A stretch of 64,000 nucleotides of DNA from a phage, in sequence record PZ386951.1, one strand, 5' to 3'. The notes under the pieces are model-generated. The model was not told the DNA's origin. It saw nothing but the letters and a program-made list of their open reading frames with translations, and did not search any database. Shown one piece after another: positions 8,726 through 40,011 of the stretch (position 1 is the stretch's first letter; each line of letters opens with the position of its first letter). The position numbers and the translations under genes are program-made.

Positions 8726-8755
8726 ATAATACCACGGTTTGAACTTGTTGTAAAC
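8726..8755 (-). promoter_or_regulatory. T4-type early promoter (-35 GTTTAC, extended -10 TGgTATTAT)
   Basis: Minus strand: GTTTACaacaagttcaaaccgTGGTATTAT; upstream ttttcacaaagtt element shared with other copies. Confidence 0.6.
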
Positions 8756-8836
8756 AACTTTGTGAAAAATATTTTAGGGAATGACAAGAAGGGAACGATA
8801 GCTTAGAATGGTAATATACAGAATGCGAGAAAGAAA

Positions 8837-8849
8837 GGCCCAGAGGGCC
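8837..8849 (-). terminator. GC stem-loop ggccc-aga-gggcc after nrdH stop
   Basis: Hairpin followed on minus strand by a T-rich run. Confidence 0.4.
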
Positions 8850-8853
8850 CGTC

Positions 8854-9162
8854 TTAATCTTCTATGATATCTCTATCATATCCAAGTGAAATGAGAGTTT
8901 CTTTGAAGTGTTTAATGTTCTTTTGTCTAGAATCATTAATGAAAATGACCGGATAACGAATGTTAAGAGATGTGAATCCAGCGCGTTTAGCAAGAGATAC
9001 AATCAGCGGACGATCATACTCAATCTTACCATTATTTGTAAGAACTTTATAGAAAGTAAAAGGAGCATTGAGCTCCTTTAGAAGTTTTGTAACTGATTGA
9101 CATCCAGGACAACGACCTACTTCATCTGGAATTCCATAGACTTCAATCTTATTTTGTTTCAC
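8854..9162 (-). CDS. nrdH: NrdH-like glutaredoxin (redoxin for anaerobic/class I RNR)
   Basis: 102 aa, CPGC redox motif (GRCPGCQ), adjacent to nrdG/nrdD. Confidence 0.7.
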   Translation of the reverse strand: MKQNKIEVYGIPDEVGRCPGCQSVTKLLKELNAPFTFYKVLTNNGKIEYDRPLIVSLAKRAGFTSLNIRYPVIFINDSRQKNIKHFKETLISLGYDRDIIED

Positions 9163-9164
9163 AA

Positions 9165-9377
9165 CTATTCCTTACTAAGAGCAGCATTCAGCTTGTTAGT
9201 AATTTTATCCAGACGCTTATTGAACTCACTAGAAGATAAGCCCTTTTCTGGAGAAATTAAACTAATAACGAAAAATACAACAATAAAAGGAATAAGGAAA
9301 ATAGCTCCAACTGCCATAAACAGAAAGAATGTTACAGTTGTAAGAAAATCAGCTAAACCTTTACGAAATTTATACAT
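9165..9377 (-). CDS. small membrane protein (70 aa)
   Basis: Single hydrophobic helix TVTFFLFMAVGAIFLIPFIVVFFVISL. Confidence 0.5.
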   Translation of the reverse strand: MYKFRKGLADFLTTVTFFLFMAVGAIFLIPFIVVFFVISLISPEKGLSSSEFNKRLDKITNKLNAALSKE

Positions 9378-9492
9378 ATTTTACCCTTAATTGATTAACC
9401 AAGCATTGATAAGCACTAAACTATATTGCGAATAAAATTCTGGACCAAAATGAAAAATCATATCATTTATAGTATCCATAATGTAATTCAAT

Positions 9493-9963
9493 TTAATCAT
9501 GTGTCCACACCCCATCGGTATTTGACCAAAGTCGCTGATTATCTGATCCTCGCCACAGCTTTTTAGTCGGAAGATTTTTCTCATACTTCCCATCAATAAT
9601 AACATCAACATATTTAAGCATTTCTAGTTGTTTAATATCTTCAAACTTATATCCTGTCCACAACCAAATGCTTTTATTGGGATAAAGATTTTTAATAGTT
9701 TGAACCACAGAGTGAATCACGTCTCTGTTATCAGGATAAAGAGGGTCACCTCCGGTTATAGTTAATCCTTCTATATAATCATTATTCAAACATTCAATTA
9801 ATTGTTCTAGTGTTTCACCAGTGAATGGAATACCATTTCTAGCATTCCATGTTGATTTATTATAACACCCTTCACATTTATGCAAACAACCTGTAACGAA
9901 AAGAACGACCCTGCAACCAGGGCCATTAACAAAATCGCAAGGATAAAATCTATCATAATTCAT
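9493..9963 (-). CDS. nrdG: anaerobic ribonucleotide reductase activating protein (radical SAM)
   Basis: 156 aa; CLHKCEGC (CX3CX2C) cluster motif; stop overlaps nrdD. Confidence 0.9.
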   Translation of the reverse strand: MNYDRFYPCDFVNGPGCRVVLFVTGCLHKCEGCYNKSTWNARNGIPFTGETLEQLIECLNNDYIEGLTITGGDPLYPDNRDVIHSVVQTIKNLYPNKSIWLWTGYKFEDIKQLEMLKYVDVIIDGKYEKNLPTKKLWRGSDNQRLWSNTDGVWTHD

Positions 9964-11777
9964 TGGTGTTTAACCCTATGCATGATTTCTTTATTTTTGC
10001 CAAGATTAAATCCGCGTTCGTTCGGATTTCCCAAATAACCACATGTTCTTCTTATTGTGTTCATCTTTTTAGGATCAGTTTCTCCACAAATAGAACAAAC
10101 AAATCCGTTTTCAGTAGGAGTCATTTCATGGGTACTTCCGCATGTAAAACATTTATCTACTGGCATATTAACACCAAAATAATCTAAATGTTGTGCGGCA
10201 TAATCCCATACAGCCTCAAGACCTTTTAAGTTATTTTTCATATCAGGAAGTTCAACATAAGAAATGTGACCACCTGTCGCAATGAAATGATATGGCGCTT
10301 CACGAGAAATCTTTTCAAACGGAGTAATATTTTCTTCTACTGAAACATGGAAACTGTTAGTGTACCAGCCTTTATCAGTAACATCCTTTACACTTCCATA
10401 TTTTTCAGTATCAAGTTTACAGAAACGATAACAAAGGTTTTCAGCAGGAGTCGAATATAAACTAAAAGCAAATCCAGTTCTTTCAGTCCACTGTTTAAGA
10501 TGAGCATTCATTTTAGTTAAAATTTCTTGTCCAATATCACGACCGACAAGAATATTCAATTCGTGAATACCAATGTATCCTAGGGACACTGAACTTCTAC
10601 CGTTTTTAAATAACTCAATTATATCATCATCAGGTTTAAGACGAACCCCAAATGCACCTTCTTGGTAAAGAATAGGAGCAACAGTTGCTTTAACTCCTTT
10701 TAAGGAACTAATTCTACACATCAAAGCTTCAAAACATAAATCCATTCGTTCATTGAACAATTCAGTAAATTTCTGTTCATTGAACTGTGTTCCAATATAA
10801 GAATCTAATGCGATACGAGGAAGATTCAGTGTTACAACACCAAGATTATTACGTCCATCAAGAATTTCATTACCAGTCGAATCTTTCCATACGCTCAAGA
10901 AACTACGGCAACCCATCGGAGAAACAGGAACAGATGAACCAGTGATAGCTTTATTGTTCTTAGCTGAAATAATATCAGGATACATCCTTTTGCTTGCGCA
11001 CTCTAGAGCAAGCTGTTTAATATCATAGTTCGGATCGTCTTTGTAAAGATTAACACCTTCTTCAACGAACATAACAAGCTTAGGGAAAATAGGAGTTATC
11101 CCATCACGACCGAGACCTTTAATACGATTTTTCAGAATTGCTTTCTGAATCATTCGTTCAGTCCAGTCAGTTCCCGTACCAAATGTAATTGTTACAAAAG
11201 GCGTTTGTCCGTTTGAACTAAAGAGAGTATTTACTTCATATTCATAAGCTTGGAATGCATCGTATACGTCTTTTTCTGTTTTAGATTGAGCATAATTCAA
11301 CGCATCGGCGATTTGCCATTTTTCTGCATCCTCAATATGTTTTGCATAGGTGCGTTTAACATAAGGAGAAAGTACTTTATCTACATTCGCAAAAGTCGTT
11401 CCGCCGTATTGATGGGAAGCAACCTGTGCAGTAATTTGTGCCATAATTGCAGTAGCAACACCGATTGATTTAGGAGTTTCAATCTGTGCATTACCAAGCT
11501 TAAATCCGTTCTCAAGCATTCCTTTTAAATCTACTAAACAACAATTAGTAAATGGAAGAGCAGGGGAATAATCAATATCATGGAAATGAATAATTCCGCT
11601 TTCATGTGCTTTCATAATAAAAGACGGGACCATATTTTTGGCAATGTGTTTAGACACAATACCAGCCATAAGGTCCCGTTGAGTTGGAAAAACACGAGAA
11701 TCTTTATTAGCATTCTCGTTCAAAAGGTCTTTATTAGTTTTATGAATCAATCCTTCAATTTCTTTTTCAATTGTCAT
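9960..11777 (-). CDS. nrdD: anaerobic ribonucleoside-triphosphate reductase (class III), uninterrupted
   Basis: 605 aa; C-terminal glycyl-radical motif RTCGYLG and Zn-ribbon cysteines; single continuous ORF. Confidence 0.95.
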   Translation of the reverse strand: MTIEKEIEGLIHKTNKDLLNENANKDSRVFPTQRDLMAGIVSKHIAKNMVPSFIMKAHESGIIHFHDIDYSPALPFTNCCLVDLKGMLENGFKLGNAQIETPKSIGVATAIMAQITAQVASHQYGGTTFANVDKVLSPYVKRTYAKHIEDAEKWQIADALNYAQSKTEKDVYDAFQAYEYEVNTLFSSNGQTPFVTITFGTGTDWTERMIQKAILKNRIKGLGRDGITPIFPKLVMFVEEGVNLYKDDPNYDIKQLALECASKRMYPDIISAKNNKAITGSSVPVSPMGCRSFLSVWKDSTGNEILDGRNNLGVVTLNLPRIALDSYIGTQFNEQKFTELFNERMDLCFEALMCRISSLKGVKATVAPILYQEGAFGVRLKPDDDIIELFKNGRSSVSLGYIGIHELNILVGRDIGQEILTKMNAHLKQWTERTGFAFSLYSTPAENLCYRFCKLDTEKYGSVKDVTDKGWYTNSFHVSVEENITPFEKISREAPYHFIATGGHISYVELPDMKNNLKGLEAVWDYAAQHLDYFGVNMPVDKCFTCGSTHEMTPTENGFVCSICGETDPKKMNTIRRTCGYLGNPNERGFNLGKNKEIMHRVKHQ

Positions 11778-12775: not shown

Positions 12776-12898
12776 GTCCCATCTCCATATCAATTAAGTC
12801 ATTTATCGTTGGTTCATTATATACTGTTTCTTCATCAGTGTAAACCGGTTCTTCCGGCTCTGACTCTACAGTTTCCCATCTAGCCGCCCACCAAGGTT

Positions 12899-15380: not shown

Positions 15381-16383
15381 TTACTTAATTAACTGTAAAG
15401 CTTGTTCAAGACGATCAAGACGATTAACGGATTCTTCCCAAATCTTTTTAGCCTGCTCATATTCTTTCTGCGCTTTATTAGAAATTTCTAGAGCTTCTTT
15501 ATAAGCTTTTTCTAGTGCAATAACTTCTGGACGAATTTCTATCGGTTCAGGTGAATCGTCAAGACATTCCATTAGTTCCTCAAGGGTAGTTTCTTCTTTA
15601 GGAGTATTCACAATTTCATCACATTTTTGTTGATAAATTTCTTTATCAGTAGGTGAGTACGCGCACTTTACTTCACGAAGACTAATTACAATTTTATATC
15701 CTTCCCAACCGCATATATTCTTAAAAGGATAAGTATGAATATTTTCTACTGTTTCCATACAAAGTAATGCGGTCTCTAATTGACGAGTTATAGTGCTAGC
15801 AATTGAGAAAAATTTATTAATATTCTTTTGGTTAGTTTCTGGTGTAAAAAATCCATAATTCACAAAAATAGATACTTTATTTTTATCAAGTTCATATTCT
15901 TTTATGATAATCATATCAGAAGCCAAAGGATGAATTTGACGATAATCGCCATAACATAATTTAGAAGCTGATTTTAGAATCTGTCCTTTGAAAAGTCTGA
16001 AATTACTAATCCAACGACGAGTAAAAATATTCTCAGGGTCTTCTTTATTATTAAGATGATAAGAATTAACATCACCGAACCAATTATATCCTACTACATC
16101 TTTGGTTCGTTTAATTTCTTTCCCAAAATTACCAAGAATATCCCGATTAACCAAATATGAAAGAAGACGAGACTCTTTAAAGGTTTTCTTGATAAGATCT
16201 TTATCTACACGGCTAGAAATTTTACGAATTTCATGAATAAATTTAGTAGAAGAAACAATACTTGCATCAACACTATTGAGCCATTGATTGATAATAGAAA
16301 GAACGATATTTTGACCAAACATCGGTATAGCTTTATCATCAATAACGCTATTGAATGATTTGATATATTCGTTACGAGTCATA
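15381..16383 (-). CDS. hypothetical protein, paralog family member B (~333 aa, C-terminal coiled coil)
   Basis: Start placed at MTRNEYIK (RBS GAGGAG); the longer track start would overlap the promoter. Confidence 0.65.
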
Positions 16384-16411
16384 TTAATCTCCTCAGTAGA
16401 AAGTAAGAACA

Positions 16412-16441
16412 TTATACCACATCCTTGTGGCAAAGTAAACT
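16412..16441 (-). promoter_or_regulatory. T4-type early promoter (GTTTAC ... TGgTATAAT)
   Basis: Minus strand: GTTTACtttgccacaaggatgTGGTATAAT, immediately upstream of paralog B. Confidence 0.6.
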
Positions 16442-17468
16442 AGTTCAGTGCATTTAGTGCATTGTTCAGTTTAGAACGTTGCTTTGTCAGATTTTGAACC
16501 CTTGACTGAGCTTGTTCTAACACCTTTTCAGCTTCTAGCACTTCATTAGTTGCTTTAACGAGTTCATCATCTACTGCCTTAAGAGACTTCTCAATCGCGT
16601 CAGCGTGCCATTTTTCTACAGGTTTAAAATTTGAATTTTCAGTAGGAAGAAAACTCACTTTATTAAGTTTACATGCATCTATATTGCTTGAGCTATACAT
16701 CCAAAATTTAGGATCGTTTGATAAGTAATTGGATAAATTTAAATTTAAGTTATCTTGTACTTCCTGCTTTTTCTCTTGCGGGACTTCGTCCTTTCTCAAA
16801 AAATCGTATTTAAATGAAACGATCATATCAAGTTCATATGATGTTGTATCTAATTTAAATCGTTCAAAACGAGGTAAAATCTTAGATTGAACAGCAGCAA
16901 CAACATCCATATACTTAAATGCTTCTGTCAACTGTGATTTAAGGCATTCACAAATTGAAAGAGAATTTTTTGTATTAGGTTTAAAACTAATTCGCGCAGT
17001 TCTATTATTTTCTTTTAACGGTCTTACTTCCATCTGAAGAGTATAACCATCAAATTTCAGATTCTTTAAGTTAATATCAGAGCCTTTTAATCGACTAGAA
17101 GTAGACAAAATTTGCTTTAATTGTTTACGGAATAGAGCAATAAATCTCCATTCAATACGATAATGATTTGGATTGAAAAATCCAGATGATAAATCGACCT
17201 TACTCTGACCAACACCTTGAACAAATAGAGGATTTTTATAATCAATAGTTTTACAGAAATCGGTGAGCTGCTCACGAGCAGTCATTTGCGTAATATACCC
17301 TGCTTTACTAAAATTACGCACCCATTCACTGCTATTCGTATACTTAAAGTGATGAATAACACGATTAACTTTATCAGGGTCTAAATTATTTTCACACAAA
17401 AATGTCATAACATCACGAGTATAACTGGCATTACGAACCATATCTTCAATTTGAGAACGAGTTTTCAT
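16440..17468 (-). CDS. hypothetical protein, paralog family member C (342 aa, C-terminal coiled coil)
   Basis: RBS AAGGAA 5 nt before ATG. Confidence 0.65.
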   Translation of the reverse strand: MKTRSQIEDMVRNASYTRDVMTFLCENNLDPDKVNRVIHHFKYTNSSEWVRNFSKAGYITQMTAREQLTDFCKTIDYKNPLFVQGVGQSKVDLSSGFFNPNHYRIEWRFIALFRKQLKQILSTSSRLKGSDINLKNLKFDGYTLQMEVRPLKENNRTARISFKPNTKNSLSICECLKSQLTEAFKYMDVVAAVQSKILPRFERFKLDTTSYELDMIVSFKYDFLRKDEVPQEKKQEVQDNLNLNLSNYLSNDPKFWMYSSSNIDACKLNKVSFLPTENSNFKPVEKWHADAIEKSLKAVDDELVKATNEVLEAEKVLEQAQSRVQNLTKQRSKLNNALNALN

Positions 17469-18834: not shown

Positions 18835-19362
18835 TTATGCGAGTACCGTCTTTAACCGTTCTTCAAACTTCCGAAGAGTATTTTGGCGTTCAGCTCTTTG
18901 CTTTTTGTAAGTTTCAATACGCTCTGAAATGAGAGTGTATCGTTCATTTACTGATTCTTTCATAAAATCAGGAATTTCACGAGAAGTTTTAATCTCGTCA
19001 AATTTATCAATAACAGCTTGCTCTTCAGCAATTAAGTTATCATACATCAAAATATCTTTCTTGATGAACTCAATATCTTCTTGAGTTACACGAGATAATT
19101 TAGATGCTTTATCCTTTTTGTACTGTTCGTTAGTATCACGAGACCAGTGTAATGTACGATTTTTATTCGTATTCTTGTAAATTTCTACAATACCAATCTC
19201 ATCGATAATAACGATCCAATTCCAACGGGATTTGTAAATTTGTCCTCCATCAACAGTGATTTCACCTCCGATTGAGATGTCATTAAAGAACTTGCTTTGT
19301 GCTTCTGATTTAAATTTACCATCGTTGTAATTTACCAGGTTGAAAATATCTTTAGCGTTCAT
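18835..19362 (-). CDS. hypothetical protein (175 aa)
   Basis: RBS GGAGG 8 nt upstream of ATG. Confidence 0.6.
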   Translation of the reverse strand: MNAKDIFNLVNYNDGKFKSEAQSKFFNDISIGGEITVDGGQIYKSRWNWIVIIDEIGIVEIYKNTNKNRTLHWSRDTNEQYKKDKASKLSRVTQEDIEFIKKDILMYDNLIAEEQAVIDKFDEIKTSREIPDFMKESVNERYTLISERIETYKKQRAERQNTLRKFEERLKTVLA

Positions 19363-19390
19363 TTTGTGTTCCTCCGTAGTTGATAGTTGT

Positions 19391-19420
19391 ATAGTACCAC
19401 AGAGGAACAGTCTTGTAAAC
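19391..19420 (-). promoter_or_regulatory. T4-type early promoter cassette
   Basis: Minus strand GTTTACaagactgttcctctgTGGTACTAT; leader caactatcaactac shared with copies at 20835 and 36211. Confidence 0.55.
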
Positions 19421-19422
19421 CA

Positions 19423-19737
19423 CTAAAAGAAACTTCTTTCACAATTTTTTCCACTGAACCATGCGCTCACTGCTTTCTTAGTCTCAGGAGCGGTGTTATC
19501 CATAAACCATTCAAAGGCAGCCTTTTTATGATTCTGGAGGGCTTCTCGGGCTTTAATCTGCTCACGGTCTATTAACACTAACATATGAGCCTTTCTTGTC
19601 ACCAAGGGCTTCTTATGATTTTTTGAATACTCCCAATCATTTGTCCATCGCATCGTTGTTGCGAATTGAAATACAGCTTCTTTAATTTTAGTTTCGTAAA
19701 TTTCACGAGCCTTTGAGTATAACATCACTACCTCCAT
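19423..19737 (-). CDS. hypothetical protein (~100-104 aa)
   Basis: ORF; start may be the second Met. Confidence 0.5.
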   Translation of the reverse strand: MEVVMLYSKAREIYETKIKEAVFQFATTMRWTNDWEYSKNHKKPLVTRKAHMLVLIDREQIKAREALQNHKKAAFEWFMDNTAPETKKAVSAWFSGKNCERSFF

Positions 19738-19827: not shown

Positions 19828-20796
19828 TTATTTCAGAAGAGTAACCTCAGCAATTTCTTCCCAACCGTTTTTGTCGGTCATAATAAAGTCAGCAAGATAA
19901 AGTGCAGTACGCAGTGAAACATTGCGTAAACGATTAACATTGACTTTCATCCATGATAATGCTTTATAAGTTTCTTCATCAGAAAGACCGCGCTTTTGCA
20001 TCATGTCAGTTGAAAGAATAACATCTTCAACCCTGACCATAATTTCTTCATTAGTGTGAACACCCAAATCCAAATAAACTGAGCGGGACACTAATGCTTG
20101 TAAATGTGGAGCAAGTTTAGTACCACGGTCTAATTCGCGGTCAATGTCAACGTTTGTGATAAAAACAATCGTTCCTTTAAATTCAAACTCACGCTCAATG
20201 CCTTTTTCTTCTAAGTAAGAAGATGCAGTGCTCCAGCAGACTTTACGGGTCTCTCCGGTGTCCAGAGCAGCTTTCAGAAGATTAAGAATGTCCATATCAG
20301 AGAAAACATCCACATCATCAATCAAAAGGACAGAATTCTCTTCACGATTATTCCAGAGCTGTTCATAAAGACCGATACCAGAGATTTTACCGTTAATGCT
20401 TTTATACTCAATGTATCCAATATCATTTGCTTTATTTAAAGCTTTATCTAAAGAATACGTTTTACCAATACCCGCCGCACCAGAGATAATTAATGAACGA
20501 ATGTTTCCGTTAATAATACCATTCGTCATCATTCCCATAACATTAAATCTTTTATTAATGCGGGTTTTCATATCTTCATATGATTCTTTAACTTCTTCAA
20601 CTTTTACACCATCATATGAAATGTCTGATTTGTAAACCCAAACACCACGACGTTTACCGTCAATTTCAACAAAAACTTTACCATCTCCTTGTGCATCTAC
20701 CGGAGCATTATCTGGGAACCATTCGCCTAAGAGCTCAAAAGTTCCAGAGATTTCTTTACCGAAGTAGATACCCTTATTGATAGTTACAGTTTTCAT
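19828..20796 (-). CDS. AAA+ family ATPase (~322 aa)
   Basis: Walker A GAAGIGKT, Walker B VLLIDDVD, sensor-like TIVFITN; start at MKTVTINKG (RBS GGAG), since the longer track start runs into the promoter. Confidence 0.7.
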   Translation of the reverse strand: MKTVTINKGIYFGKEISGTFELLGEWFPDNAPVDAQGDGKVFVEIDGKRRGVWVYKSDISYDGVKVEEVKESYEDMKTRINKRFNVMGMMTNGIINGNIRSLIISGAAGIGKTYSLDKALNKANDIGYIEYKSINGKISGIGLYEQLWNNREENSVLLIDDVDVFSDMDILNLLKAALDTGETRKVCWSTASSYLEEKGIEREFEFKGTIVFITNVDIDRELDRGTKLAPHLQALVSRSVYLDLGVHTNEEIMVRVEDVILSTDMMQKRGLSDEETYKALSWMKVNVNRLRNVSLRTALYLADFIMTDKNGWEEIAEVTLLK

Positions 20797-20834
20797 TTTT
20801 ATTCTCCAAATCTGTATCAGTAGTTGATAGTTGT

Positions 20835-20864
20835 ATAGTACCATAAAGCTTTATGCTTGTAAAC
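20835..20864 (-). promoter_or_regulatory. T4-type early promoter cassette
   Basis: Minus strand GTTTACaagcataaagctttatgGTACTATAC with conserved upstream ttttcacaaagtt. Confidence 0.55.
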
Positions 20865-20913
20865 AACTTTGTGAAAAATTTTTGAAATAAAAATGGAGCC
20901 CGAAGGCTCCCTA

Positions 20914-22385: not shown

Positions 22386-22387
22386 AA

Positions 22388-23473: not shown

Positions 23474-23608
23474 AATTACATACTCCTTTGAATCATATCA
23501 ATAATATTGTTCACCAAATTATAAGTAAACATTGGGTAATTATATTGAATCATCACATACACAACAAACAAAATTTTCATTCTCTTCTCCTTGACAGTTG
23601 GCAAGATT

Positions 23609-23638
23609 ACTATACCATAACCTTGCCAACTTGTAAAC
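23609..23638 (-). promoter_or_regulatory. early promoter embedded in a 9-bp inverted repeat (promoter/stem-loop cassette)
   Basis: gttggcaag-attactatacca-taa-ccttgccaac; minus strand GTTTAC ... TGGTATAGT. Confidence 0.5.
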
Positions 23639-23640
23639 CA

Positions 23641-24465: not shown

Positions 24466-24483
24466 AGTCTCCCGAAGGAGACT
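24466..24483 (-). terminator. stem-loop agtctcc-cgaa-ggagact followed by a T run on the minus strand
   Basis: 7-bp stem, tetraloop, 6 T downstream; sits 4 nt after the stop of ORF 24488..24874. Confidence 0.55.
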
Positions 24484-27757: not shown

Positions 27758-28219
27758 TCATTGAGTTTTAATTACTGCTTTAGAAGCCTTTCCTGGTAAA
27801 CGACGACTGTTGATAATTGCCATCCTACATTGAAGTGACGGGTTTTTGAACTTCTCATTAGGTTTACAAACCGTAAATCCAAGCCAAAGATTTCCATCTG
27901 TGATTTCTAAACGTCCAGGACGATATTCAACCCCATCAATAAAATCCTCGTCAATGTCAGGACGTGGAGGCATACTCAGGAATTCATTAACTTCTAAAAC
28001 ATGGTCTTTTATTTTATGGAATAATTCAAAAACATATGTCTCATCAATCTCCCGTTGAATTGCACGATCAAGAAGATGCTGAGAATATTTTAGATGAAAC
28101 GATGAGACCCCTGCTGCTTTTGATGCCTCACGAATCTCATTGTTAATTTGACGAAACTCCGACTCAAAGTGACGACGGAGCTTATTTCGACGGATAAAAA
28201 CTTCTGTGTTGATAGTCAT
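27758..28219 (-). CDS. regB: endoribonuclease RegB
   Basis: 153 aa beginning MTINTEVFIRRNKLRRHFESEF, matching recalled T4 RegB. Confidence 0.85.
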   Translation of the reverse strand: MTINTEVFIRRNKLRRHFESEFRQINNEIREASKAAGVSSFHLKYSQHLLDRAIQREIDETYVFELFHKIKDHVLEVNEFLSMPPRPDIDEDFIDGVEYRPGRLEITDGNLWLGFTVCKPNEKFKNPSLQCRMAIINSRRLPGKASKAVIKTQ

Positions 28220-28246
28220 GTTATTCTCCTCTTAACTGATAGAAAA

Positions 28247-28276
28247 ATTATACCACAGTCAAGAGGAAAAGTAAAC
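28247..28276 (-). promoter_or_regulatory. T4-type early promoter upstream of regB
   Basis: Minus strand GTTTACttttcctcttgactgTGGTATAAT. Confidence 0.6.
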
Positions 28277-28278
28277 AG

Positions 28279-28557
28279 TTATTCTTTAAATCTGATTAAT
28301 TTATTCATAGACTTTGAAACTTCTGCACGAACCTCATGTAGATTTTTGAGCTGTTCAAGACGCTGCGCATAGTAAGCAATTTCATCTTCTTCGAGACAGT
28401 CCTGTGAATCTTCTTTAAGATAACGTGCATAGTCCTGAAAAGCGTTACGAACTACTTCCTGGAAATCATCAAGACTTTGAATTTTCTTAGGAGTAACAGA
28501 TATGCGGCGGTCTGCTGTAAAATAATGAGTCCCAAAACCTGATAAAATTTGAGCCAT
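28279..28557 (-). CDS. hypothetical protein (~92 aa)
   Basis: Start at MAQILSG overlapping the upstream stop. Confidence 0.45.
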
Positions 28558-30425: not shown

Positions 30426-30899
30426 TTATTTGAACGATTTAACGTACTGAATAGAACCTTTACTATTCACGAAAGCGATTTTACCATTTTTATTATACAT
30501 GGTAGCAGTACGCTGATAACCATAAGTTTGCTTACCAGATTGATAACCAACTAATGCAAAATTATCTTCACCCATTTTATTCTGTTTAGCACGAATGCGT
30601 TCATGACCATGTGCCATAAGAACCTTAGCATCACCAGTTGCAATGGATCGACGAGTTTTTTCATCTTCAACTGTATTAACAAAATCGTCAAATGAATCAA
30701 ATTTAGCGTGAGATTTATTATACAGTTTTCCATCTACTGCATAATTATATCCCTGTACATCCATCTCAACTTCTGTACCATCATCCAGTACAGCAGTGAT
30801 TTTTTGACCTTTTTTAAATTTCAAAAGATCAGTAAAAGATTCAGCAATAATTTGAGATTTAATAGCTGCTTCAGTGATAAATTCTTGATATGTTTTCAT
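30426..30899 (-). CDS. internal-protein-like gene with capsid-targeting signal (157 aa), not one of ipI/ipII/ipIII
   Basis: N-terminus MKTYQEFITEA is the CTS/gp21-protease cleavage leader shared with ipII and ipIII; same conserved 5' UTR. Confidence 0.6.
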   Translation of the reverse strand: MKTYQEFITEAAIKSQIIAESFTDLLKFKKGQKITAVLDDGTEVEMDVQGYNYAVDGKLYNKSHAKFDSFDDFVNTVEDEKTRRSIATGDAKVLMAHGHERIRAKQNKMGEDNFALVGYQSGKQTYGYQRTATMYNKNGKIAFVNSKGSIQYVKSFK

Positions 30900-30924
30900 A
30901 TGTTTCCTTTAAATGTAAATATTT
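30876..30924 (-). repeat. ~48 bp direct repeat (CTS codons plus 5' UTR), copy 1 of 3
   Basis: gataaattcttgatatgttttcatatgtttcctttaaatgtaaata also at 31662..31707 and 32282..32330. Confidence 0.8.
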
Positions 30925-31325
30925 TTGCCGTAATACTTATACCAGTGCGGCTTCATTAAAATTTTTTCATCGAGTCGTTGTTGACTCAACCTAATAGCTG
31001 ATTTGCATGGATTATAATCATTTTTCCATTCTACTGGAATATCACTGATGTCAGGAACTTCAGTATCTTTTATACTAAACCTGCGTTTTAAGCATTCCGT
31101 TATAATGTCTGATTGACGCTTTCGCAAAAATTCTAACTTATCGTAAAAGAACGTAACATGACCAGAACCTAAAATAAACTCGGAAGATATTTTAAAATCT
31201 TTAACCCGTTTACCATTTGCCACGTGTTTACGAATTATACCAAAAACACGTGGCAATTCACGGTATTCCGCGATTAAATGTTGATCAGCAAGTTCAGATA
31301 CTAAAGTCAAATTAATACGAGTCAT
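30909..31325 (-). CDS. denV: endonuclease V (pyrimidine-dimer DNA glycosylase)
   Basis: 138 aa beginning [17 protein letters not shown], matching recalled T4 endoV. Confidence 0.9.
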
Positions 31326-31350
31326 TTTACCCCTCCAAGTAATTATGAAT

Positions 31351-31380
31351 ATACTATCACAATTCTAGGAGAAAGTAAAC
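31351..31380 (-). promoter_or_regulatory. early promoter in a stem-loop cassette upstream of denV
   Basis: ~40 bp near-identical to 32355..32394; 8-bp inverted repeat around the -10 (TGaTAGTAT), GTTTAC -35. Confidence 0.5.
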
Positions 31381-31382
31381 TG

Positions 31383-31685
31383 TTATTTACCTTTAATTAC
31401 TTTAGCTGCTTCGATAGCCGCTTGCTGAAGGTCATCCATAGACATACCGAATTTAGAAGCAAAGTTATCAATTTTCTTTTCGACAGCATTCAAAGGCTTG
31501 GCCTGTTTACCTTCATTAGCGCCAGGAAGAGCGAGAATACGCTCTTTGTCAATATAAAGGCTTACAAGTTTCTTACGGTCTTTATCGGACAAATCATGAA
31601 ATGAATGGGCCTTTTTATTTATAGCGGCTTCTAATTTACCTGCACTCACTCGCGCTTCAGTAATAAATTCTTGATATGTTTTCAT
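31383..31685 (-). CDS. ipII: internal protein II
   Basis: 100 aa, N-terminal CTS MKTYQEFITEA; position denV-ipII-ipIII-e as in T4. Confidence 0.8.
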   Translation of the reverse strand: MKTYQEFITEARVSAGKLEAAINKKAHSFHDLSDKDRKKLVSLYIDKERILALPGANEGKQAKPLNAVEKKIDNFASKFGMSMDDLQQAAIEAAKVIKGK

Positions 31686-31707
31686 ATGTTTCCTTTAAAT
31701 GTAAATA
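31662..31707 (-). repeat. direct repeat (CTS plus 5' UTR), copy 2 of 3
   Basis: See 30876..30924. Confidence 0.8.
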
Positions 31708-31726
31708 GGTCTGAGTATTAGCTTTA

Positions 31727-32305
31727 TTAGGAATTACGGGCTGCATTAGCAACGGCATACGCGTACTGAACATTAGCGTCTTTAAACGTACCTTTAGAGG
31801 TATCTATTTCTGCCTTAAAGCCGCCTTTAGTCATAACATCGGCAAATTCTTTACGGAAAGCCATTGCATCAAGACCTTTCCATGATGATTTATGCTTGGC
31901 GAATTCAAGACCAGCGTAGTTGACAGCCTTAGCTAATTTATTATCAATAACCCATTTACCAGCTTTAGGCACAAACTTCGGGCCTTTCTGTTTAGAGAAC
32001 AGTTTTAAATTCCAGCGGCGAAGGTCACTGTCGGCTTTAACAAAAGCTGCGTCTAAGTTACTAGCAACAACATCTTCAATATGAGCAAATTTAAGTCCGT
32101 CAACTTCAATATTTAGATCGGTACGCCAGCGAAGTCCTTCCCAAGCGAAGGCTTTAAAGTCGGAAGCCTTTGTAGCTAAGTACCGTTCAATAGGAGCTGT
32201 TTTAGGGTCAAAGCCGTTTCCTGATCGGTAGGTCCACTCATCTTTGTTAATGCCTTTGGCCTTTACTACAGAAACTTCGGCAATAAATTCTTGATATGTT
32301 TTCAT
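31727..32305 (-). CDS. ipIII: internal protein III
   Basis: 192 aa, CTS MKTYQEFIAEV; basic Lys/Ala-rich; position before e. Confidence 0.8.
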   Translation of the reverse strand: MKTYQEFIAEVSVVKAKGINKDEWTYRSGNGFDPKTAPIERYLATKASDFKAFAWEGLRWRTDLNIEVDGLKFAHIEDVVASNLDAAFVKADSDLRRWNLKLFSKQKGPKFVPKAGKWVIDNKLAKAVNYAGLEFAKHKSSWKGLDAMAFRKEFADVMTKGGFKAEIDTSKGTFKDANVQYAYAVANAARNS

Positions 32306-32330
32306 ATGTTTCCTTTAAATGTAAATATTT
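32282..32330 (-). repeat. direct repeat (CTS plus 5' UTR), copy 3 of 3
   Basis: See 30876..30924. Confidence 0.8.
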
Positions 32331-32364
32331 TAATTAGTAATTGTCTATTCAAGTAATTGTGAAT

Positions 32365-32394
32365 ATACTATCACAATTCCAAGAGAAAGTAAAC
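32365..32394 (-). promoter_or_regulatory. early promoter in a stem-loop cassette upstream of ipIII
   Basis: Near-identical copy of the 31341..31380 cassette. Confidence 0.5.
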
Positions 32395-32398
32395 AACT

Positions 32399-33367
<969 letters not shown>

Positions 33368-35903: not shown

Positions 35904-36179
35904 TTATTTCATATTATTGAAATATTCTTCTGCGATTTCGTCGTTATCATGGTAAACTTTAGAAGACAGTTTAACATAACCTTCAGCAGTGAACATGTTA
36001 ATCACAACCTTTACAGTATACCACTGACCATCTTCATTACCCATTACTGCGTAAGTTTCAAACATTGGATGATCAGGACCGATAACTTTAATATCATTCA
36101 CTGTACGACCGAAATCTTCTGAAACGCATTTCATAAAGAAGTTGAACAGTTCGCCGTAATTATCCATTTCATTCTCCAA
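35904..36179 (-). CDS. hypothetical acidic protein (91 aa)
   Basis: First gene downstream of the early promoter at 36211..36240. Confidence 0.5.
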   Translation of the reverse strand: MENEMDNYGELFNFFMKCVSEDFGRTVNDIKVIGPDHPMFETYAVMGNEDGQWYTVKVVINMFTAEGYVKLSSKVYHDNDEIAEEYFNNMK

Positions 36180-36210
36180 GTTGTTTTCTGTATCAGTAGT
36201 TGATAGTTGT

Positions 36211-36240
36211 ATAGTACCATGGAAGAACAGAGATGTAAAC
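36211..36240 (-). promoter_or_regulatory. T4-type early promoter cassette
   Basis: Minus strand GTTTACatctctgttcttccaTGGTACTAT; ~65 bp near-identical to the 19375 and 20820 copies. Confidence 0.55.
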
Positions 36241-36374
36241 CGTTTTGTGAAAAAATTTTAAAAATTTTTAGGGAATTCTAGGGTCAGGAGGGGCAATTAA
36301 AAGGTAGGATAATATATTATAAAGGGTATAAACTAAATGATGCCTAGAGAGGCCAAGAAAGGCCTAGATACAAA

Positions 36375-36401
36375 AAATCCCTATCATTTAGATAGGGATT
36401 T
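36375..36401 (-). terminator. intrinsic terminator (11-bp stem aaatccctatc/gatagggattt, then T run on minus strand)
   Basis: Directly after the stop of CDS 36406..36969. Confidence 0.6.
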
Positions 36402-36405: not shown

Positions 36406-36969
36406 TTATTTACCCAGTTTAGTTATTATAGCTTCGGCAGCAGCTTTTAGCTTAGATGCAGTGTTAATACGATTTTTAATTTCAGTATACGCATCGCCAA
36501 GAACATCAAGGCTATCTGAATAAACACTTACACTATTGCGTTCACTATTTGAAATAGAACCTTTAGTTTTACGATCAAAATCGGTGTACACGTCTTGAAG
36601 ATCGCGGGCTGCCTTCTTTGCATCATCCAATGCATCAAGAGCTTTATTTAAAGCATTAACATATTTTTTAGTGTCAAACATATTCTTAGAAATTTTGACG
36701 GGTGCGCGTTCAGGAGTAGCTAAGGCAGATTTAGGAACCTGAGCGCCTGATGCCAGTTTCTTAGAAATTTTGAAAAATGCTTTATTGAATTTATTTTCTT
36801 GACTCATCGTAAAAGAACTATTATCGATGTTATACATTTCAATAGCTTTAGCTTTCCACTTAAGAAAATCGCCCCGGTCTTTTGGGTCCAAGTGGAAGAA
36901 TACTTTAGTAAGATCTGCTTCAGATGGTAATTTTGCTGCTTCGGTTAAAAATTCGGCATAGGTTTTCAT
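36406..36969 (-). CDS. internal-protein-like gene with capsid-targeting signal (187 aa)
   Basis: N-terminus MKTYAEFLTEAAK (CTS-like, predicted gp21 cleavage after LTE); RBS AAGGA. Confidence 0.55.
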   Translation of the reverse strand: MKTYAEFLTEAAKLPSEADLTKVFFHLDPKDRGDFLKWKAKAIEMYNIDNSSFTMSQENKFNKAFFKISKKLASGAQVPKSALATPERAPVKISKNMFDTKKYVNALNKALDALDDAKKAARDLQDVYTDFDRKTKGSISNSERNSVSVYSDSLDVLGDAYTEIKNRINTASKLKAAAEAIITKLGK

Positions 36970-37062: not shown

Positions 37063-37088
37063 AAGCCCCAACCTTTCGGTCGGGGCTA
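37063..37088 (-). terminator. intrinsic terminator closing the tRNA/stable-RNA transcription unit
   Basis: Minus strand agccccgacc-GAAA-ggttggggct followed by TTTTT. Confidence 0.6.
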
Positions 37089-37403: not shown

Positions 37404-37479
37404 TGGTCGAGGCAGTAGGGATCGAACCTACGACCTAGGACTTAGAAGGTCCTTGCTCTTCCTTCTGAGCTATGCCTCG
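37404..37479 (-). tRNA. tRNA-Arg: tRNA-Arg (anticodon UCU), CCA encoded
   Basis: Manual cloverleaf: acceptor CGAGGCA/TGCCTCG, D-stem GCTC/GAGC, anticodon loop CUUCUAA, T-arm GTAGG-TTCGATC-CCTAC. Confidence 0.85.
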
Positions 37480-37483
37480 GATT

Positions 37484-37558
37484 TGGCGGACGTGATAGGA
37501 TTCGAACCTATAACCAATCGCTTAACAGGCGATCGCTCTGCCATTGAGCTACACATCC
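37484..37558 (-). tRNA. tRNA-Asn: tRNA-Asn (anticodon GUU), CCA encoded
   Basis: Manual cloverleaf: acceptor GGATGTG/CACGTCC, anticodon stem ATCGC/GCGAT, loop CUGUUAA, T-loop TTCGAAT. Confidence 0.8.
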
Positions 37559-37562
37559 AAAT

Positions 37563-37649
37563 TGGTGGGGAGTGATGGAGTCGAACCACCCGAGTCGCAA
37601 TGACAATGGATTTACAGTCCACACCGCTACCTCTACGGGATAACTCCCC
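37563..37649 (-). tRNA. tRNA-Tyr: tRNA-Tyr (anticodon GUA), type II long variable arm, CCA encoded
   Basis: Acceptor GGGGAGT/ACTCCCC; anticodon arm GTGGA-CUGUAAA-TCCAT; variable arm resembles E. coli tRNA-Tyr. Confidence 0.8.
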
Positions 37650-37661
37650 TAATTCATAATT

Positions 37662-37736
37662 TGGTGGCCCTGGGTGGAATTGAACCACCATCTGGCGATT
37701 ATGAGTCGCTTGCTTGAACCTTCCAGCTACAGGGCC
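37662..37736 (-). tRNA. tRNA-Ile: tRNA with CAU anticodon (Ile2/lysidine-type or Met)
   Basis: Acceptor GGCCCTG/CAGGGCC; anticodon arm GCGACUCAUAAUCGC as in E. coli tRNA-Ile2. Confidence 0.75.
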
Positions 37737-37745
37737 AAATTTTTC

Positions 37746-38231
37746 TTATTTTATGTAATATTTATTTAAAAACTTTCTAGCTTGAGTGTGGCTAACATTT
37801 ATAGCATTTGCATAATTTTTAATAAAACCTCGTTCATCCATATTAAAATTTTCTAATATTTTTAATCGTCTAGTTATCTCATCTTGACTTAAAGTACTTG
37901 CATTATTTTTAGAAATTTTTTCTAAGGACTGAACTGAGTGTTTTCGACCACTAAAATTAAAATTTTTAGATTTTGGAGGAAATCTATCATTTAGTCTGGC
38001 ATCTTTTGTATTTTGATTATTGGTTGCGCAATATATGTTATTTAATGAATACGGTCCTTTATCACCAAAACGACACATGCAGTATTCATGACCCTTTCTT
38101 CCACGCTTATCATAATTTCCCGTTGATTTCCACCAATGCAACCACTCATCAAAAGTTAAATTCCATTCAATGTTTCTACGTATAGCAGAATTCCGCTGAG
38201 AAATATATTTTGCATAATCTTCTTTCATCAC
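37746..38231 (-). CDS. HNH-family endonuclease-like protein (161 aa) between the two tRNA sub-clusters
   Basis: Central CRFGDKGPYSLNNIYCATNNQN resembles the HNH_3 core (first His not obvious); C-terminal helix-turn-helix-like tail. Confidence 0.45.
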   Translation of the reverse strand: MMKEDYAKYISQRNSAIRRNIEWNLTFDEWLHWWKSTGNYDKRGRKGHEYCMCRFGDKGPYSLNNIYCATNNQNTKDARLNDRFPPKSKNFNFSGRKHSVQSLEKISKNNASTLSQDEITRRLKILENFNMDERGFIKNYANAINVSHTQARKFLNKYYIK

Positions 38232-38275
38232 AAATTTCTCTACTTATTACATACACTAAGCTAAATCAGCAAAAC

Positions 38276-38365
38276 TGGCGGAGGCGATAGGATTTGAACC
38301 TATGAGTCGCCGGAGCGACTGCCGGTTTTCAAGACCGGTGCATTAAACCACTCTGCCACGCCTCC
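38276..38365 (-). tRNA. tRNA-Ser: tRNA-Ser (anticodon UGA), type II
   Basis: Acceptor GGAGGCG/CGCCTCC; anticodon arm CCGGU-CUUGAAA-ACCGG; long variable arm; T-loop TTCAAAT. Confidence 0.85.
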
Positions 38366-38367
38366 AG

Positions 38368-38441
38368 TCTCCACGGCAGGATTTGAACCTGCGACATTCT
38401 GCTCCCAAAGCAGACGCTCTACCAAACTGAGCTACACGGAG
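38368..38441 (-). tRNA. tRNA-Pro: tRNA-Pro (anticodon UGG), no encoded CCA, 2 nt from tRNA-Ser
   Basis: Acceptor CTCCGTG/CGTGGAG (two G-U pairs); D-arm GCTCAGTTTGGTAGAGC; anticodon loop UUUGGGA. Confidence 0.85.
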
Positions 38442-38451
38442 TAAATTAAAT

Positions 38452-38525
<74 letters not shown>

Positions 38526-38530
38526 AAATT

Positions 38531-38617
38531 TGGTGCGAGAAGTGGGACTCGAACCCACAAGGAAATCATTCCGCAGCATTTTAAGTGCTGTGCCTTTACC
38601 AATTTGACCATTCTCGC
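38531..38617 (-). tRNA. tRNA-Leu: tRNA-Leu (anticodon UAA), type II, CCA encoded
   Basis: Acceptor GCGAGAA/TTCTCGC; anticodon arm CAGCA-CUUAAAA-TGCTG; T-arm GTGGG-TTCGAGT-CCCAC. Confidence 0.85.
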
Positions 38618-38618
38618 G

Positions 38619-38691
38619 CTGGGAATAAAGGACTCGAACCTTTGCATCTAGCAGTCAAAGTGCTATGCCTTACCAACTTGGCTAATTCCCA
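38619..38691 (-). tRNA. tRNA-Gln: tRNA-Gln (anticodon UUG), no encoded CCA, 1 nt from tRNA-Leu
   Basis: Acceptor TGGGAAT/ATTCCCA; anticodon arm TAGCA-CUUUGAC-TGCTA; T-arm AAAGG-TTCGAGT-CCTTT. Confidence 0.8.
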
Positions 38692-39079: not shown

Positions 39080-39460
39080 TTACCCTTCATCAACAATAGT
39101 ATGAGTGTGGGCATTTACAATTTGCCACCAATCAAAGCGATTAGAACCATACATTGGTTTGTTCTCATTTTCTTTGATAATGTCACGGAGTTCATCTTCG
39201 GTAGCGGCTTTCGCGATTAAATCAGCATATCCACCGCGAGGATAATAATTATCACCTGCAAAAAGTAAAAAGTTCGGTTTAATATTATTGAACTCTTCAA
39301 GAGTAATAACTTTTCCTGTCGGTTGAACAATCTCTACATATTTATATCCTAATTTTTGAGCAGCATCTACTGCTTCAAGCAAAGTATCATGAGCCCATCC
39401 AATTTGACAACCTGGCTTTTCAGATGGATTAGCCTGATAATCCGCGTACACTTTATACAT
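39080..39460 (-). CDS. hypothetical protein (~126 aa)
   Basis: Start at MYKVYADY, abutting the upstream stop. Confidence 0.5.
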   Translation of the reverse strand: MYKVYADYQANPSEKPGCQIGWAHDTLLEAVDAAQKLGYKYVEIVQPTGKVITLEEFNNIKPNFLLFAGDNYYPRGGYADLIAKAATEDELRDIIKENENKPMYGSNRFDWWQIVNAHTHTIVDEG

Positions 39461-39461
39461 T

Positions 39462-39647
39462 CTATTCACCTTTAGAAATTTTATCCATAACGATAGCAAT
39501 TAAACCAATTAAAAATGCTACTACAAGTGAAAAAACATTTTCTGCTGTAGTCAATAATCCGCATATAAATCCAACAAACATTGAAAAACTAAAAGCAGAA
39601 GCAGAAATTGCAATAGCAACATTTCGAATTAATTCACAACGTTTCAT
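39462..39647 (-). CDS. small membrane protein (61 aa)
   Basis: Two short hydrophobic helices. Confidence 0.4.
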   Translation of the reverse strand: MKRCELIRNVAIAISASAFSFSMFVGFICGLLTTAENVFSLVVAFLIGLIAIVMDKISKGE

Positions 39648-39675
39648 TTTATTCTCCTCAGTAGTTGATAGGGTA

Positions 39676-39705
39676 ATAGTATCACTACCCTATCTAAAAG
39701 TAAAC
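39676..39705 (-). promoter_or_regulatory. early promoter in a stem-loop cassette (downstream flank of the ipI-locus gene)
   Basis: Inverted repeat gataggg/ccctatc around -10 TGaTACTAT; GTTTAC -35; contains the 16-bp direct repeat taatagtatcactacc. Confidence 0.5.
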
Positions 39706-39939
39706 TCATTTTTTACGAAAAATTGATTTATTTTCTGCTGCCCATTTTTCAATAACTGCAGCCGGACCAGTAACAACAATTTTATCACCGTAATCTTCTG
39801 CGGCGAGTTGACCGAAATTATCTAATGCATCACGAAGAACTCCATGAGGCATTTCACCCATTTTATCTTTCTTGCCAGTGTAAATAAACTCAACTTTTAC
39901 ATCAGAAGATTCAGCGATAAATTCTTTAAACGTTTTCAT
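39706..39939 (-). CDS. internal protein at the ipI locus (77 aa precursor with CTS)
   Basis: N-terminus MKTFKEFIAES (CTS); position between 57B and the tRNA region as for T4 ipI; body does not obviously match recalled IPI. Confidence 0.6.
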   Translation of the reverse strand: MKTFKEFIAESSDVKVEFIYTGKKDKMGEMPHGVLRDALDNFGQLAAEDYGDKIVVTGPAAVIEKWAAENKSIFRKK

Positions 39940-39969
39940 TTTATTTTCCTAATTAATTTTGATGAGATA

Positions 39970-39999
39970 ATAGTATCACTACCTCATCAGCATGTAAAC
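39970..39999 (-). promoter_or_regulatory. early promoter in a stem-loop cassette (upstream flank of the ipI-locus gene)
   Basis: Inverted repeat gatgag/ctcatc around TGaTACTAT; GTTTAC -35; second copy of taatagtatcactacc. Confidence 0.5.
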
Positions 40000-40011
40000 A
40001 ACTTTGTGAAA

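Follow-up and report, generated by a model that had tools for sequence, protein, structure and literature searches.

T4 early promoters are reportedly 'uber' sigma-70 promoters of the form UP/-35/TGn/-10, a description credited to Liebig & Rueger in 1989 and to Miller et al. in 2003. Published work gives the same composition (Hinton 2010, PMC2988021), and the T4 regB promoter has been called a 'typical early promoter' (PMC3014915). In T4-type phages, early promoters have also been described as parts of PeSL (promoter-early stem-loop) elements, whose subclasses carry the stem-loop either upstream of the promoter or overlapping its -10 box (Arbiol et al. 2010, PMC2839356; Comeau et al. 2014, PMC4122927). 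Repeated promoter/stem-loop elements flanking the internal-protein (IP) genes of T-even phages were first described by Repoila et al. 1994 (as summarised in PMC2839356). In the T4 genes e, soc, 49 and I-TevI, a late promoter lies inside a hairpin that pairs with the ribosome-binding site (RBS), so that long transcripts are masked and those started close to the gene are open (Uzan & Miller 2010, PMC3014915). Here we examine a 64,000-nucleotide stretch of phage DNA (sequence record PZ386951.1, hereafter the window), in which twelve minus-strand elements preceding genes, named below by position as cassettes 8726 to 39970, had been predicted to be early-promoter cassettes.

The cassettes are, with high probability, sigma-70 early promoters of a T4-like coliphage, many of them equipped with a built-in hairpin and acting as opportunistic recombination patches. 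The window derives from a Tequatrovirus (T4-like coliphage): hundreds of genomes match its segments at 95-98% DNA identity, and it is colinear with T4 from ~32.7 to 78 kb.

All twelve elements were found where the original prediction had placed them, except that 16412 is recounted as 16411. Each combines a GTTTAC(A/T) -35 box, a 17-bp spacing between hexamers and a -10 box of the form TAnnnT, and is followed by a conserved leader with a Shine-Dalgarno (SD) sequence, mostly GGAG, and an ATG 25-60 nt from the -10. The motif originally quoted for them holds for GTTTAC and the spacing; its strict extended -10 does not hold in general. GTTTAC-N15-TGGTAYTAT matches only 4 of the 12 sites (0.00 expected) and a looser form 8 (0.01 expected). 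Outside the strict motif, the extended -10 varies between TGGTATAAT, TGGTATAGT (at 23609), CGGTACTAT (at 24421), TGATAGTAT (at 31351 and 32365) and TGATACTAT, with GTTTAC and spacing kept throughout; TG at -15/-14 is present in 11 of 12 sites and replaced by CG at 24421. An A/T-rich UP element is clear at 8726, 20835, 36211 and 39970 (AAAATnTTTTTCACAAAGTT, repeat family D6), and the UP regions of the remaining cassettes are A/T-rich and more diverse. This composition is that of the published UP/-35/TGn/-10 promoters. Likeness between copies extends further in places. The predicted three-copy similarity of ~65 bp corresponds to repeat family D3 (19373, 20817, 36193), 77 nt long at 68-75% identity, and an identical 33-nt stretch of -10 and leader is common to 20835 and 36211.

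To delimit the family, the 12 sites were turned into a position-weight matrix, with which both strands of the full 64 kb were searched. Exactly the 12 sites were returned at 23.7-32.5 bits, the next best matches scoring 13.4 and 12.7 bits, a gap that is partly circular as the same sites form the training set. No plus-strand match in the 64 kb exceeded 14 bits, and shuffles gave 0-1. With a relaxed independent pattern the strand bias holds (17 minus-strand vs 2 plus-strand matches). The relaxed pattern, TTTACA-N17-TAnnnT, adds three minus-strand sites within open reading frames (ORFs), at 3556-3584, 8281-8309 and 12816-12844, in keeping with the predicted 'at least twelve'. The first two are positional equivalents of T4 promoters mapped by primer extension (PMC6024815; Table 1); the third, in the pin/49.1 region, has no nameable T4 counterpart. 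The list of twelve is therefore complete for full-consensus intergenic sites and not for all early-promoter candidates. A generic sigma-70 consensus scan did not separate sites from background (92 found vs 86.9 expected), so that the T4-specific extended motif is needed.

Nine relatives (T4, T2, RB27, RB9, PP01, REP2, EC121, G8 and VIPECOOM01), out of ~500 available genomes, were used for comparison. In each of them, the matrix found 11-14 sites across the matching region; strand and gene junctions agreed throughout, and every one of the 12 sites has a positional orthologue in T4 and the eight other relatives. In T4 the counterparts lie, in window order, at 41677, 50944, 53914, 55355, 57961, 58751, 62768, 65384, 66469, 70667, 73543 and 73910. 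The T4 GenBank/RefSeq records contain no promoter features, and orthology to named T4 promoters was established from coordinates and the few names given in PMC6024815 and PMC3014915. One of the T4 counterparts is the regB promoter (PMC3014915). The name Pe57954 fits the computed start of the T4 orthologue of 23609, ~7 nt below the -10 that ends at T4 57961 (PMC6024815), and Pe41 of the same paper probably corresponds to the orthologue of 8726. Pe69.9 (PMC6024815) matches by position T4 site 69938, upstream of e.6, a site missing from the window. Judged by consensus and position, the 12 elements are known sigma-70 early promoters of the T4 type (Pe), and nothing marks them as a new kind of element. 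The original reading as early-promoter cassettes is borne out by the sigma-70 elements of all twelve, their uniform early-gene orientation, their SD and ATG and their orthologues.

Next, we examined the stem-loops. Five sites had been predicted to place the -10 inside an inverted repeat of 6-9 bp. Perfect repeats surround the -10 at 23609 (10 bp), 32365 (8 bp), 39676 (9 bp) and 39970 (7 bp), and 31351 carries the repeat of 32365 with one mismatch; these last two cassettes are 93% identical over 45 nt (family D10). Inverted repeats of at least 7 bp occur with a probability of 0.084 in random 60-mers of the region, and the inverted-repeat finder under-reports short stems; it was replaced by energy-based tests. 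Duplexes between a spacer and its own leader have a mean energy of -12.4 kcal/mol, compared with -7.6 kcal/mol for non-cognate pairs with the other eleven leaders, a difference reached in none of 20,000 permutations. Folding of the sense RNA from GTTTAC to +64 gave z < -2 relative to shuffles in eight of the twelve cassettes (16411, 19391, 23609, 28247, 31351, 32365, 39676 and 39970). Folds of the sense strand are more stable than those of the antisense (-14.4 vs -9.8 kcal/mol, Wilcoxon p=0.005) owing to G.U pairs in the stems, and this asymmetry points to RNA structure rather than a DNA cruciform. RBS regions (64 nt ending at ATG+6) have a mean z of -0.45 in 55 genes without Pe and of -2.3 in those with Pe. 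Genes e and 49, whose starts are known to be masked, are also picked up by this screen, a validation of the method. Among the 55 genes without Pe, strongly structured starts (z < -2.5) are found at four minus-strand ATGs: 12247 (gene 49), 32893 (gene e), 41434 (probably gene 1 by position) and 1133 (probably 45.2).

In every fold the 5' arm precedes the start site, which lies together with the -10 in the loop or the 3' arm, so an embedded hairpin can form only in RNA coming from an upstream promoter. The 3' arm pairs with the SD in 16411, 19391, 28247 (regB) and 31351 (denV), and weakly at 24421. In regB, a 12-bp stem with one G.U joins spacer TCCTCTTGACTG to CAGTTAAGAGGA, the latter including the SD; in 16411, a second hairpin in the leader pairs the SD, again with its 5' arm upstream of +1.

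Distribution of the embedded hairpins follows the space available to the promoter. They are missing from 8726 (z=-0.36), 20835, 24421 and 36211, the four cassettes with 37-165 nt of intergenic space. Here a GC-rich hairpin with a T-run is found upstream instead, at most 100 nt from the promoter at 8726, 20835 and 24421 and 135 nt from it at 36211. In the eight embedded-hairpin cassettes, 12 nt at most (-1 to +12 nt) separate the -35 from the stop codon of the preceding gene, and a terminator of the separate kind is missing. An embedded hairpin is thus present in 8/8 cassettes without an upstream terminator vs 0/4 with one (Fisher p ~0.002, 1 in 495 for the 12-site table). All 12 cassettes consist of a promoter and a stem-loop (four upstream, eight overlapping the -10) and hence fit the PeSL definition, as the predicted resemblance to promoter-stem-loop cassettes implied.

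Two stems vary among orthologues without loss of pairing. The ipIII/denV stem has U-A, U.G or C-G at one position, with 72/72 cells paired, and the mobD.2 stem has G-C, G.U or A-U at one position, with 105/105 cells paired. Such all-paired variation is consistent with selection and is no proof of it. A scan of viral contigs for orthologues of the 23609 cassette yielded four loci, too few for covariation. In the trna.4 promoter, two spacer halves, ATAGGGT and GATAGGGTA, pair in different registers with the same 3' arm, TACCCTATC. Chimeric promoters of T2 and RB9 combine the 5' arm of one type with the 3' arm of another and fold weakly. This shows that the hairpin can be dispensed with and that the -10 core itself has been a site of recombination.

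We then asked how the cassettes relate to rearrangements. Alignments of the window with the nine relatives, obtained by BLAST, were chained, and the ends of high-scoring segment pairs, accurate to a few nt, were taken as breakpoints. Between 8 and 41 kb they form 48 clusters, 40 of them at gene boundaries. Ten clusters fall into cassettes, which make up 5.1% of the sequence (p=1.3e-4 vs a uniform null), and 8 of these 10 belong to two internal-protein loci. No breakpoint at all was found at 5 of the 12 cassette boundaries.

Clear cases of cassette-mediated exchange occur. In T2, nrdC.11 and nrdC.10 are separated by an additional gene, the junction overlap being 49 nt (window 20848-20896), and its insert stands between direct repeats of ~33 nt that comprise terminator tail, UP element and -35 (TTTATTTCAAAAATTTTTCACAAAGTTGTTTAC). 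REP2 is devoid of ipII-ipIII, and cassettes 31351 and 32365 overlap there by 45 nt. VIPECOOM01 and REP2 have an extra internal-protein gene at a 109-nt duplicated cassette junction (39919-40027). In seven relatives, homology around the gene at the ipI locus breaks inside cassette 39676 and again ~20 nt into the coding sequence below cassette 39970; for T4 and five other relatives the break in 39676 is placed at 39685-39705. The replacement of ipI has its limit inside cassette 39676. Near the nrdC.4 cassette, EC121 has a deletion junction at 16363. In the internal-protein loci, junctions fall in a 57-nt repeat of leader and IP N-terminus (D1, three copies) no less frequently than in the promoter, with breakpoints at 30908-30925, 31694-31721 and 32275. 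Short conversion patches also link cassettes 15-20 kb apart. The cassettes do take part in some swaps, mainly of internal-protein genes, and are not a general rearrangement site.

Several details accompany these junctions. The T2 insert module (L004 16888-17506) consists of a terminator, a UP element, a GTTTAC-N17-TATAAT promoter, a 161-aa ORF annotated as 'RNA polymerase ADP-ribosylase' and a terminator. Conversion tracts lie at window 20796-20835 and 36167-36211, and at L003 15554 and L009 14437. In the window, RB27 and RB9, nrdC.10 has the same leader as e.8 (CAACTACTGATACAGA), T4 and others having CAACTGATACGGA; in VIPECOOM01 and EC121, the -10/start segment of the trna.4 promoter, TATTATTACCCTATC, is found in the nrdC.8 promoter. 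The nrdC.10 promoter spacer is filled by a perfect 12-bp palindrome (20841-20852, minus strand; Table 1), identical in all nine relatives.

A number of observations weigh against the reading of the cassettes as hairpin-bearing early promoters and recombination patches. Promoter activity in this phage is argued from orthology and consensus. The 3' arm ends 5-15 nt before the SD in 23609, 32365, 39676 and 39970, so that four of the eight embedded hairpins leave the SD uncovered and RBS masking is not their only role. None of the eight is followed by a U-tract, and termination is therefore not predicted. The predicted accessibility of SD-AUG, which in read-through RNA drops to 0.37-0.65 of the own-transcript value for six cassettes and so favours masking, comes from a comparison made without a length-matched control. 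Weak hairpins occur despite the lack of an upstream terminator at the T4 e.6 promoter, G8 25380 and VIPECOOM01 33066, and the split between embedded hairpins and terminators is a tendency rather than a law. Formal covariation was not significant, 203/500 (ipIII/denV) and 427/500 (mobD.2) shuffles reaching the observed score, because the orthologues are very similar and the variable pairs pass through G.U. Finally, cassette boundaries are not enriched in breakpoints (7/12 vs 27/58 other boundaries, Fisher p=0.34, with a gene list hand-curated from the ORF table and T4 colinearity).

This last result bears most directly on the idea, raised by the original prediction, that the cassettes concentrate at accessory-gene boundaries and mediate gene shuffling. 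In its full form, they would be mobile PeSL elements and the main engine of accessory-gene shuffling, acting via gene mini-circles that recombination of adjacent cassettes excises or inserts, possibly with a structure-specific protein. Mini-circles have been demonstrated for RB49/phi1 (PMC2839356), PeSLs were reported near indels in a comparison of phage PST with T4 (PMC4122927), and the duplicated-cassette junctions at the T2 insertion, the REP2 deletion and the extra internal-protein genes, the excess of breakpoint clusters, the chimeric promoters and the conversion patches all agree with it. Most of the cassette breakpoints, however, come from the internal-protein loci, where the 57-nt repeat is at least as involved, and the cassette boundaries lacking any breakpoint speak against an engine. 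Many other indels represent gain or loss of homing endonucleases (mobB, mobC/segH/segD, I-TevII, mobD, segB and one more), and there is no sign of a dedicated recombinase. We regard such an engine as rather unlikely. What stands of the predicted association are the junctions at the internal-protein loci and the T2 insert; across the nine relatives the cassettes are used as breakpoints and not preferred over other gene boundaries.

Of the endonuclease genes, mobB, mobC, I-TevII (nrdD being intron-less), mobD and segB are missing from the window in comparison with T4, the spots concerned being 5704-5729, 9943-9963, 11239-11242, 21928-22891 and 37449-38255. Other relatives have different endonucleases at the same spots (segH, segD and one near 19820).

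Embedded hairpins might alternatively be terminators or attenuators that stop read-through, as was proposed for PeSL stem-loops. In the window they are confined to, and present at, all promoters that lack a separate terminator upstream, and the RB49/phi1 PeSL stem-loop cut downstream lacZ like rrnB T1 (PMC2839356). The tested RB49 stem is, however, G/C-rich, and the T-even versions were called weaker and more AT-rich (PMC2839356). Our stems are AT-rich with G.U pairs and lack a U-tract, unlike the four upstream hairpins with their T-runs. Canonical intrinsic terminators are on this ground rejected for the embedded hairpins, and termination or attenuation in the wider sense appears unlikely to us.

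It is also conceivable that the complementarity is a compositional by-product of pyrimidine-rich spacers facing purine-rich SDs, and that the likeness of the cassettes reflects promoter consensus only. Several spacers are indeed CT-rich, the SDs are of the GGAG type, non-cognate pairs already reach a considerable energy, and the covariation tests were not significant. Against this, cognate pairs are far stronger than non-cognate pairs of the same composition, four hairpins form without involvement of the SD, their distribution is perfectly complementary to that of upstream terminators, and identity over 33-57 nt reaches beyond functional motifs. Such a by-product seems improbable.

Least credible, in our opinion, is that the inverted repeats act as DNA, as cruciforms, recombination hot spots or sites of an early-promoter shut-off factor. 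The shut-off mechanism of early promoters is unexplained in the literature (PMC2988021, PMC3014915), and some recombination junctions do fall within repeats. But the arm sequences differ between promoters, so there is no common operator; the sense strand folds better, its G.U pairs being C.A mismatches on the other strand of a cruciform; and weakly paired chimeric promoters persist in T2 and RB9. A CRISPR array, already denied in the original prediction, is rejected, since distances between elements vary irregularly from 294 to ~7,700 bp, copies are 60-93% identical and every one of them precedes a gene.

Table 1. Early-promoter cassettes and associated features of the window (z, fold relative to shuffled sequences).
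Feature	Position	Strand	Description
Early-promoter-like site	3556-3584	minus	TTTACA-N17-TATAGT with TG; gene 47 region; positional equivalent of T4 Pe35.3
Early-promoter-like site	8281-8309	minus	GTTTACA-N17-TATAAT, no TG; in ORF; positional equivalent of T4 Pe40.4
Cassette 8726, 55.6 homologue	8693-8777	minus	UP element, GTTTAC, TGGTATTAT, SD, ATG 8695; T4 orthologue 41677-41706
Terminator-like GC hairpin and T-run	8836-8850	minus	Between nrdH stop codon and promoter 8726
Cassette 16411, nrdC.4 homologue	16380-16462	minus	Spacer/-10 hairpin, z=-2.3
Cassette 19391, nrdC.8 homologue	19360-19442	minus	Spacer TGTTCCTC pairs SD GAGGAACA; -20.8 kcal/mol; z=-6.2
Cassette 20835, nrdC.10 homologue	20794-20886	minus	12-bp palindrome ATAAAGCTTTAT in spacer
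Terminator-like hairpin GGAGCCTTCGGGCTCC and T-run	20895-20910	minus	After nrdC.11, just upstream of promoter 20835
Cassette 23609, mobD.2 homologue	23578-23660	minus	15-bp hairpin around -10; z=-6.8; T4 orthologue 57961-57990
Cassette 24421, mobD.5 homologue	24390-24472	minus	Extended -10 is CGGTACTAT
Terminator-like hairpin AGTCTCCTTCGGGAGACT and T6	24466-24483	minus	After rI.-1, abutting promoter 24421
Cassette 28247, regB	28217-28298	minus	Duplex -22.3 kcal/mol; z=-5.4
57-nt repeat of leader and internal-protein N-terminus (D1), copy 1	30869-30925	minus	ip4-like gene
Cassette 31351, denV	31323-31402	minus	Hairpin includes SD; z=-3.9; REP2 junction at 31380
Further copies of D1	31655-31711, 32275-32331		93-95% identical
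Cassette 32365, ipIII	32303-32416	minus	8-bp inverted repeat AATTGTGA/TCACAATT around -10; z=-2.2; junctions 32275-32410
Cassette 36211, e.8	36165-36262	minus	Member of repeat families D3 and D6
Terminator-like hairpin	36375-36401	minus	At breakpoints 36389-36397, 135 nt upstream of promoter 36211
Cassette 39676, trna.4	39645-39727	minus	9-bp inverted repeat GATAGGGTA/TACCCTATC around -10; z=-3.2
Cassette 39970, internal-protein gene (39706-39939)	39937-40021	minus	13-bp hairpin, -10 at tip; z=-3.5

As for gene context, the minus strand carries early and middle genes up to ~43,400: 46, 47, a-gt, 55, nrdH, nrdD, the nrdC.x and mobD.x series, rI, tk, vs, regB, denV, ipII, ipIII, e, tRNAs, 57B/A, 1, 3, 2 and 4. 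Beyond ~43,400, baseplate genes follow on the plus strand. Nine tRNA genes form two minus-strand blocks, 37404-37736 (Arg, Asn, Tyr, Met) and 38276-38691 (Ser, Pro, Gly, Leu, Gln), separated by a 161-aa ORF where T4 has segB, tRNA-Ile and tRNA-Thr. A 187-aa ORF at 36406-36969 (minus strand) starts with MKTYAEFLTEA, resembling the N-terminal targeting sequence of T-even internal proteins; ipII, ipIII and ip4 of the window start with MKTYQEFI. This ORF is situated outside the two classical IP loci, between terminator-like hairpins at 36375-36401 and 37064-37087. T4, T2 and RB9 lack it, and in other relatives it is variable or duplicated.

Returning to early promoters with built-in hairpins as the favoured explanation, we infer where transcription would start in this phage, what the hairpins would do and how the cassettes would recombine. 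Right after infection, unmodified host RNA polymerase would bind the UP element, the GTTTAC -35, the TG-extended -10 and the start region, and would then transcribe leftwards into the next early gene. In the four cassettes with intergenic space, a GC hairpin with a T-run separates the upstream stop codon from the UP element. In the eight whose -35 adjoins the stop codon, the hairpin is superimposed on the promoter, its 5' arm provided by the spacer and its 3' arm by the leader. Transcripts from the cassette's own promoter would not contain the 5' arm, and promoter-proximal mRNA would stay open for translation. On read-through RNA, the embedded hairpin may mark a transcription-unit boundary by masking the downstream RBS and/or by protecting or attenuating the upstream 3' end. 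In cassettes with the SD in the stem, read-through RNA would be poorly and promoter-proximal RNA well translated; for the four SD-free hairpins we would guess at attenuation or at a protective effect on the upstream 3' end. The near-identical stretches of 25-110 nt shared by the cassettes would provide opportunistic homology patches for phage recombination.

We tentatively propose, as a possibility with the odds still against it, that the embedded hairpins constitute a systematic 'transcript-origin filter' for early genes packed against the upstream gene. If true, the spacer would have evolved to pair with the promoter's own leader, only the gene's own immediate-early transcript would be translated (or expose its SD to RegB), and RNA reading through from upstream would be masked or given a protected 3' end. 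The late-promoter principle of e, soc and 49 would thereby be extended to an entire class of early promoters, and the missing terminator features would be explained. Whatever the fate of this proposal, the split between hairpins and terminators provides a testable hypothesis on how T4 insulates tightly packed early transcription units. The chief value of the cassettes lies in correct annotation, as they mark probable transcription-unit starts in Tequatrovirus genomes without promoter features. They also illustrate that gene modules, among them the internal-protein genes and the T2 insert, bring along the signals for their expression. For T-even phages, the notion of PeSL-driven shuffling is tempered: exchange is real at a few loci, and cassette exchange is indistinguishable from the general tendency of breakpoints toward gene boundaries.

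Compared with the early promoters of T4, the cassettes show the same GTTTAC, 17-bp spacer, TG-extended -10, A/T-rich UP element, conserved start region and orientation, and the same positions upstream of homologues of 55.6, nrdC.4, nrdC.8, nrdC.10, mobD.2, mobD.5, regB, denV, ipIII, e.8, trna.4 and ipI. Nothing essential differs: the window lacks the T4 e.6 promoter, which comes with e.7, and its denV and trna.4 promoters have other, recombinant spacer halves.

With PeSLs (PMC2839356, PMC4122927) the cassettes share the succession of AT-rich region, early promoter, stem-loop and the SD and ATG of the next gene. Junctions of indels or replacements also fall at some of them, and in T2 the inserted gene stands between two cassettes. 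They differ from PeSLs in their AT-rich stems with G.U pairs and no U-tract, those of RB49/phi1 being GGGG...CCCC, and, among the relatives compared, in the absence of general breakpoint enrichment over other gene boundaries. The copies at the internal-protein loci are the elements of Repoila et al.: cassettes 31351, 32365, 39676 and 39970 flank ipII/ipIII and the ipI-locus gene, and IP genes have been swapped, lost or added between relatives with junctions in the elements. Here, however, the 57-nt repeat of leader and N-terminal targeting sequence serves as junction as often as the promoter, and a gene with an IP-like N-terminus is also present at a third locus (36406-36969).

The control of e, soc, 49 and I-TevI has the same geometry as 16411, 19391, 28247 and 31351, for which an analogous translational effect may be predicted. 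The known cases, in contrast, are late promoters delaying expression, whereas the internal promoter is here an early one, and half of the eight hairpins here do not involve the SD. The T2 insert, finally, resembles the morons of lambdoid phages (Hendrix et al. 2000, via PMC2839356) in being a single gene with its own promoter and terminator, and differs from them in its sense orientation between direct repeats of cassette sequence, a placement that argues for homologous rather than illegitimate recombination. The cognate complementarity of spacer and leader, together with its split with upstream terminators, goes somewhat beyond what is described in the papers found and suggests a testable role distinct from termination.

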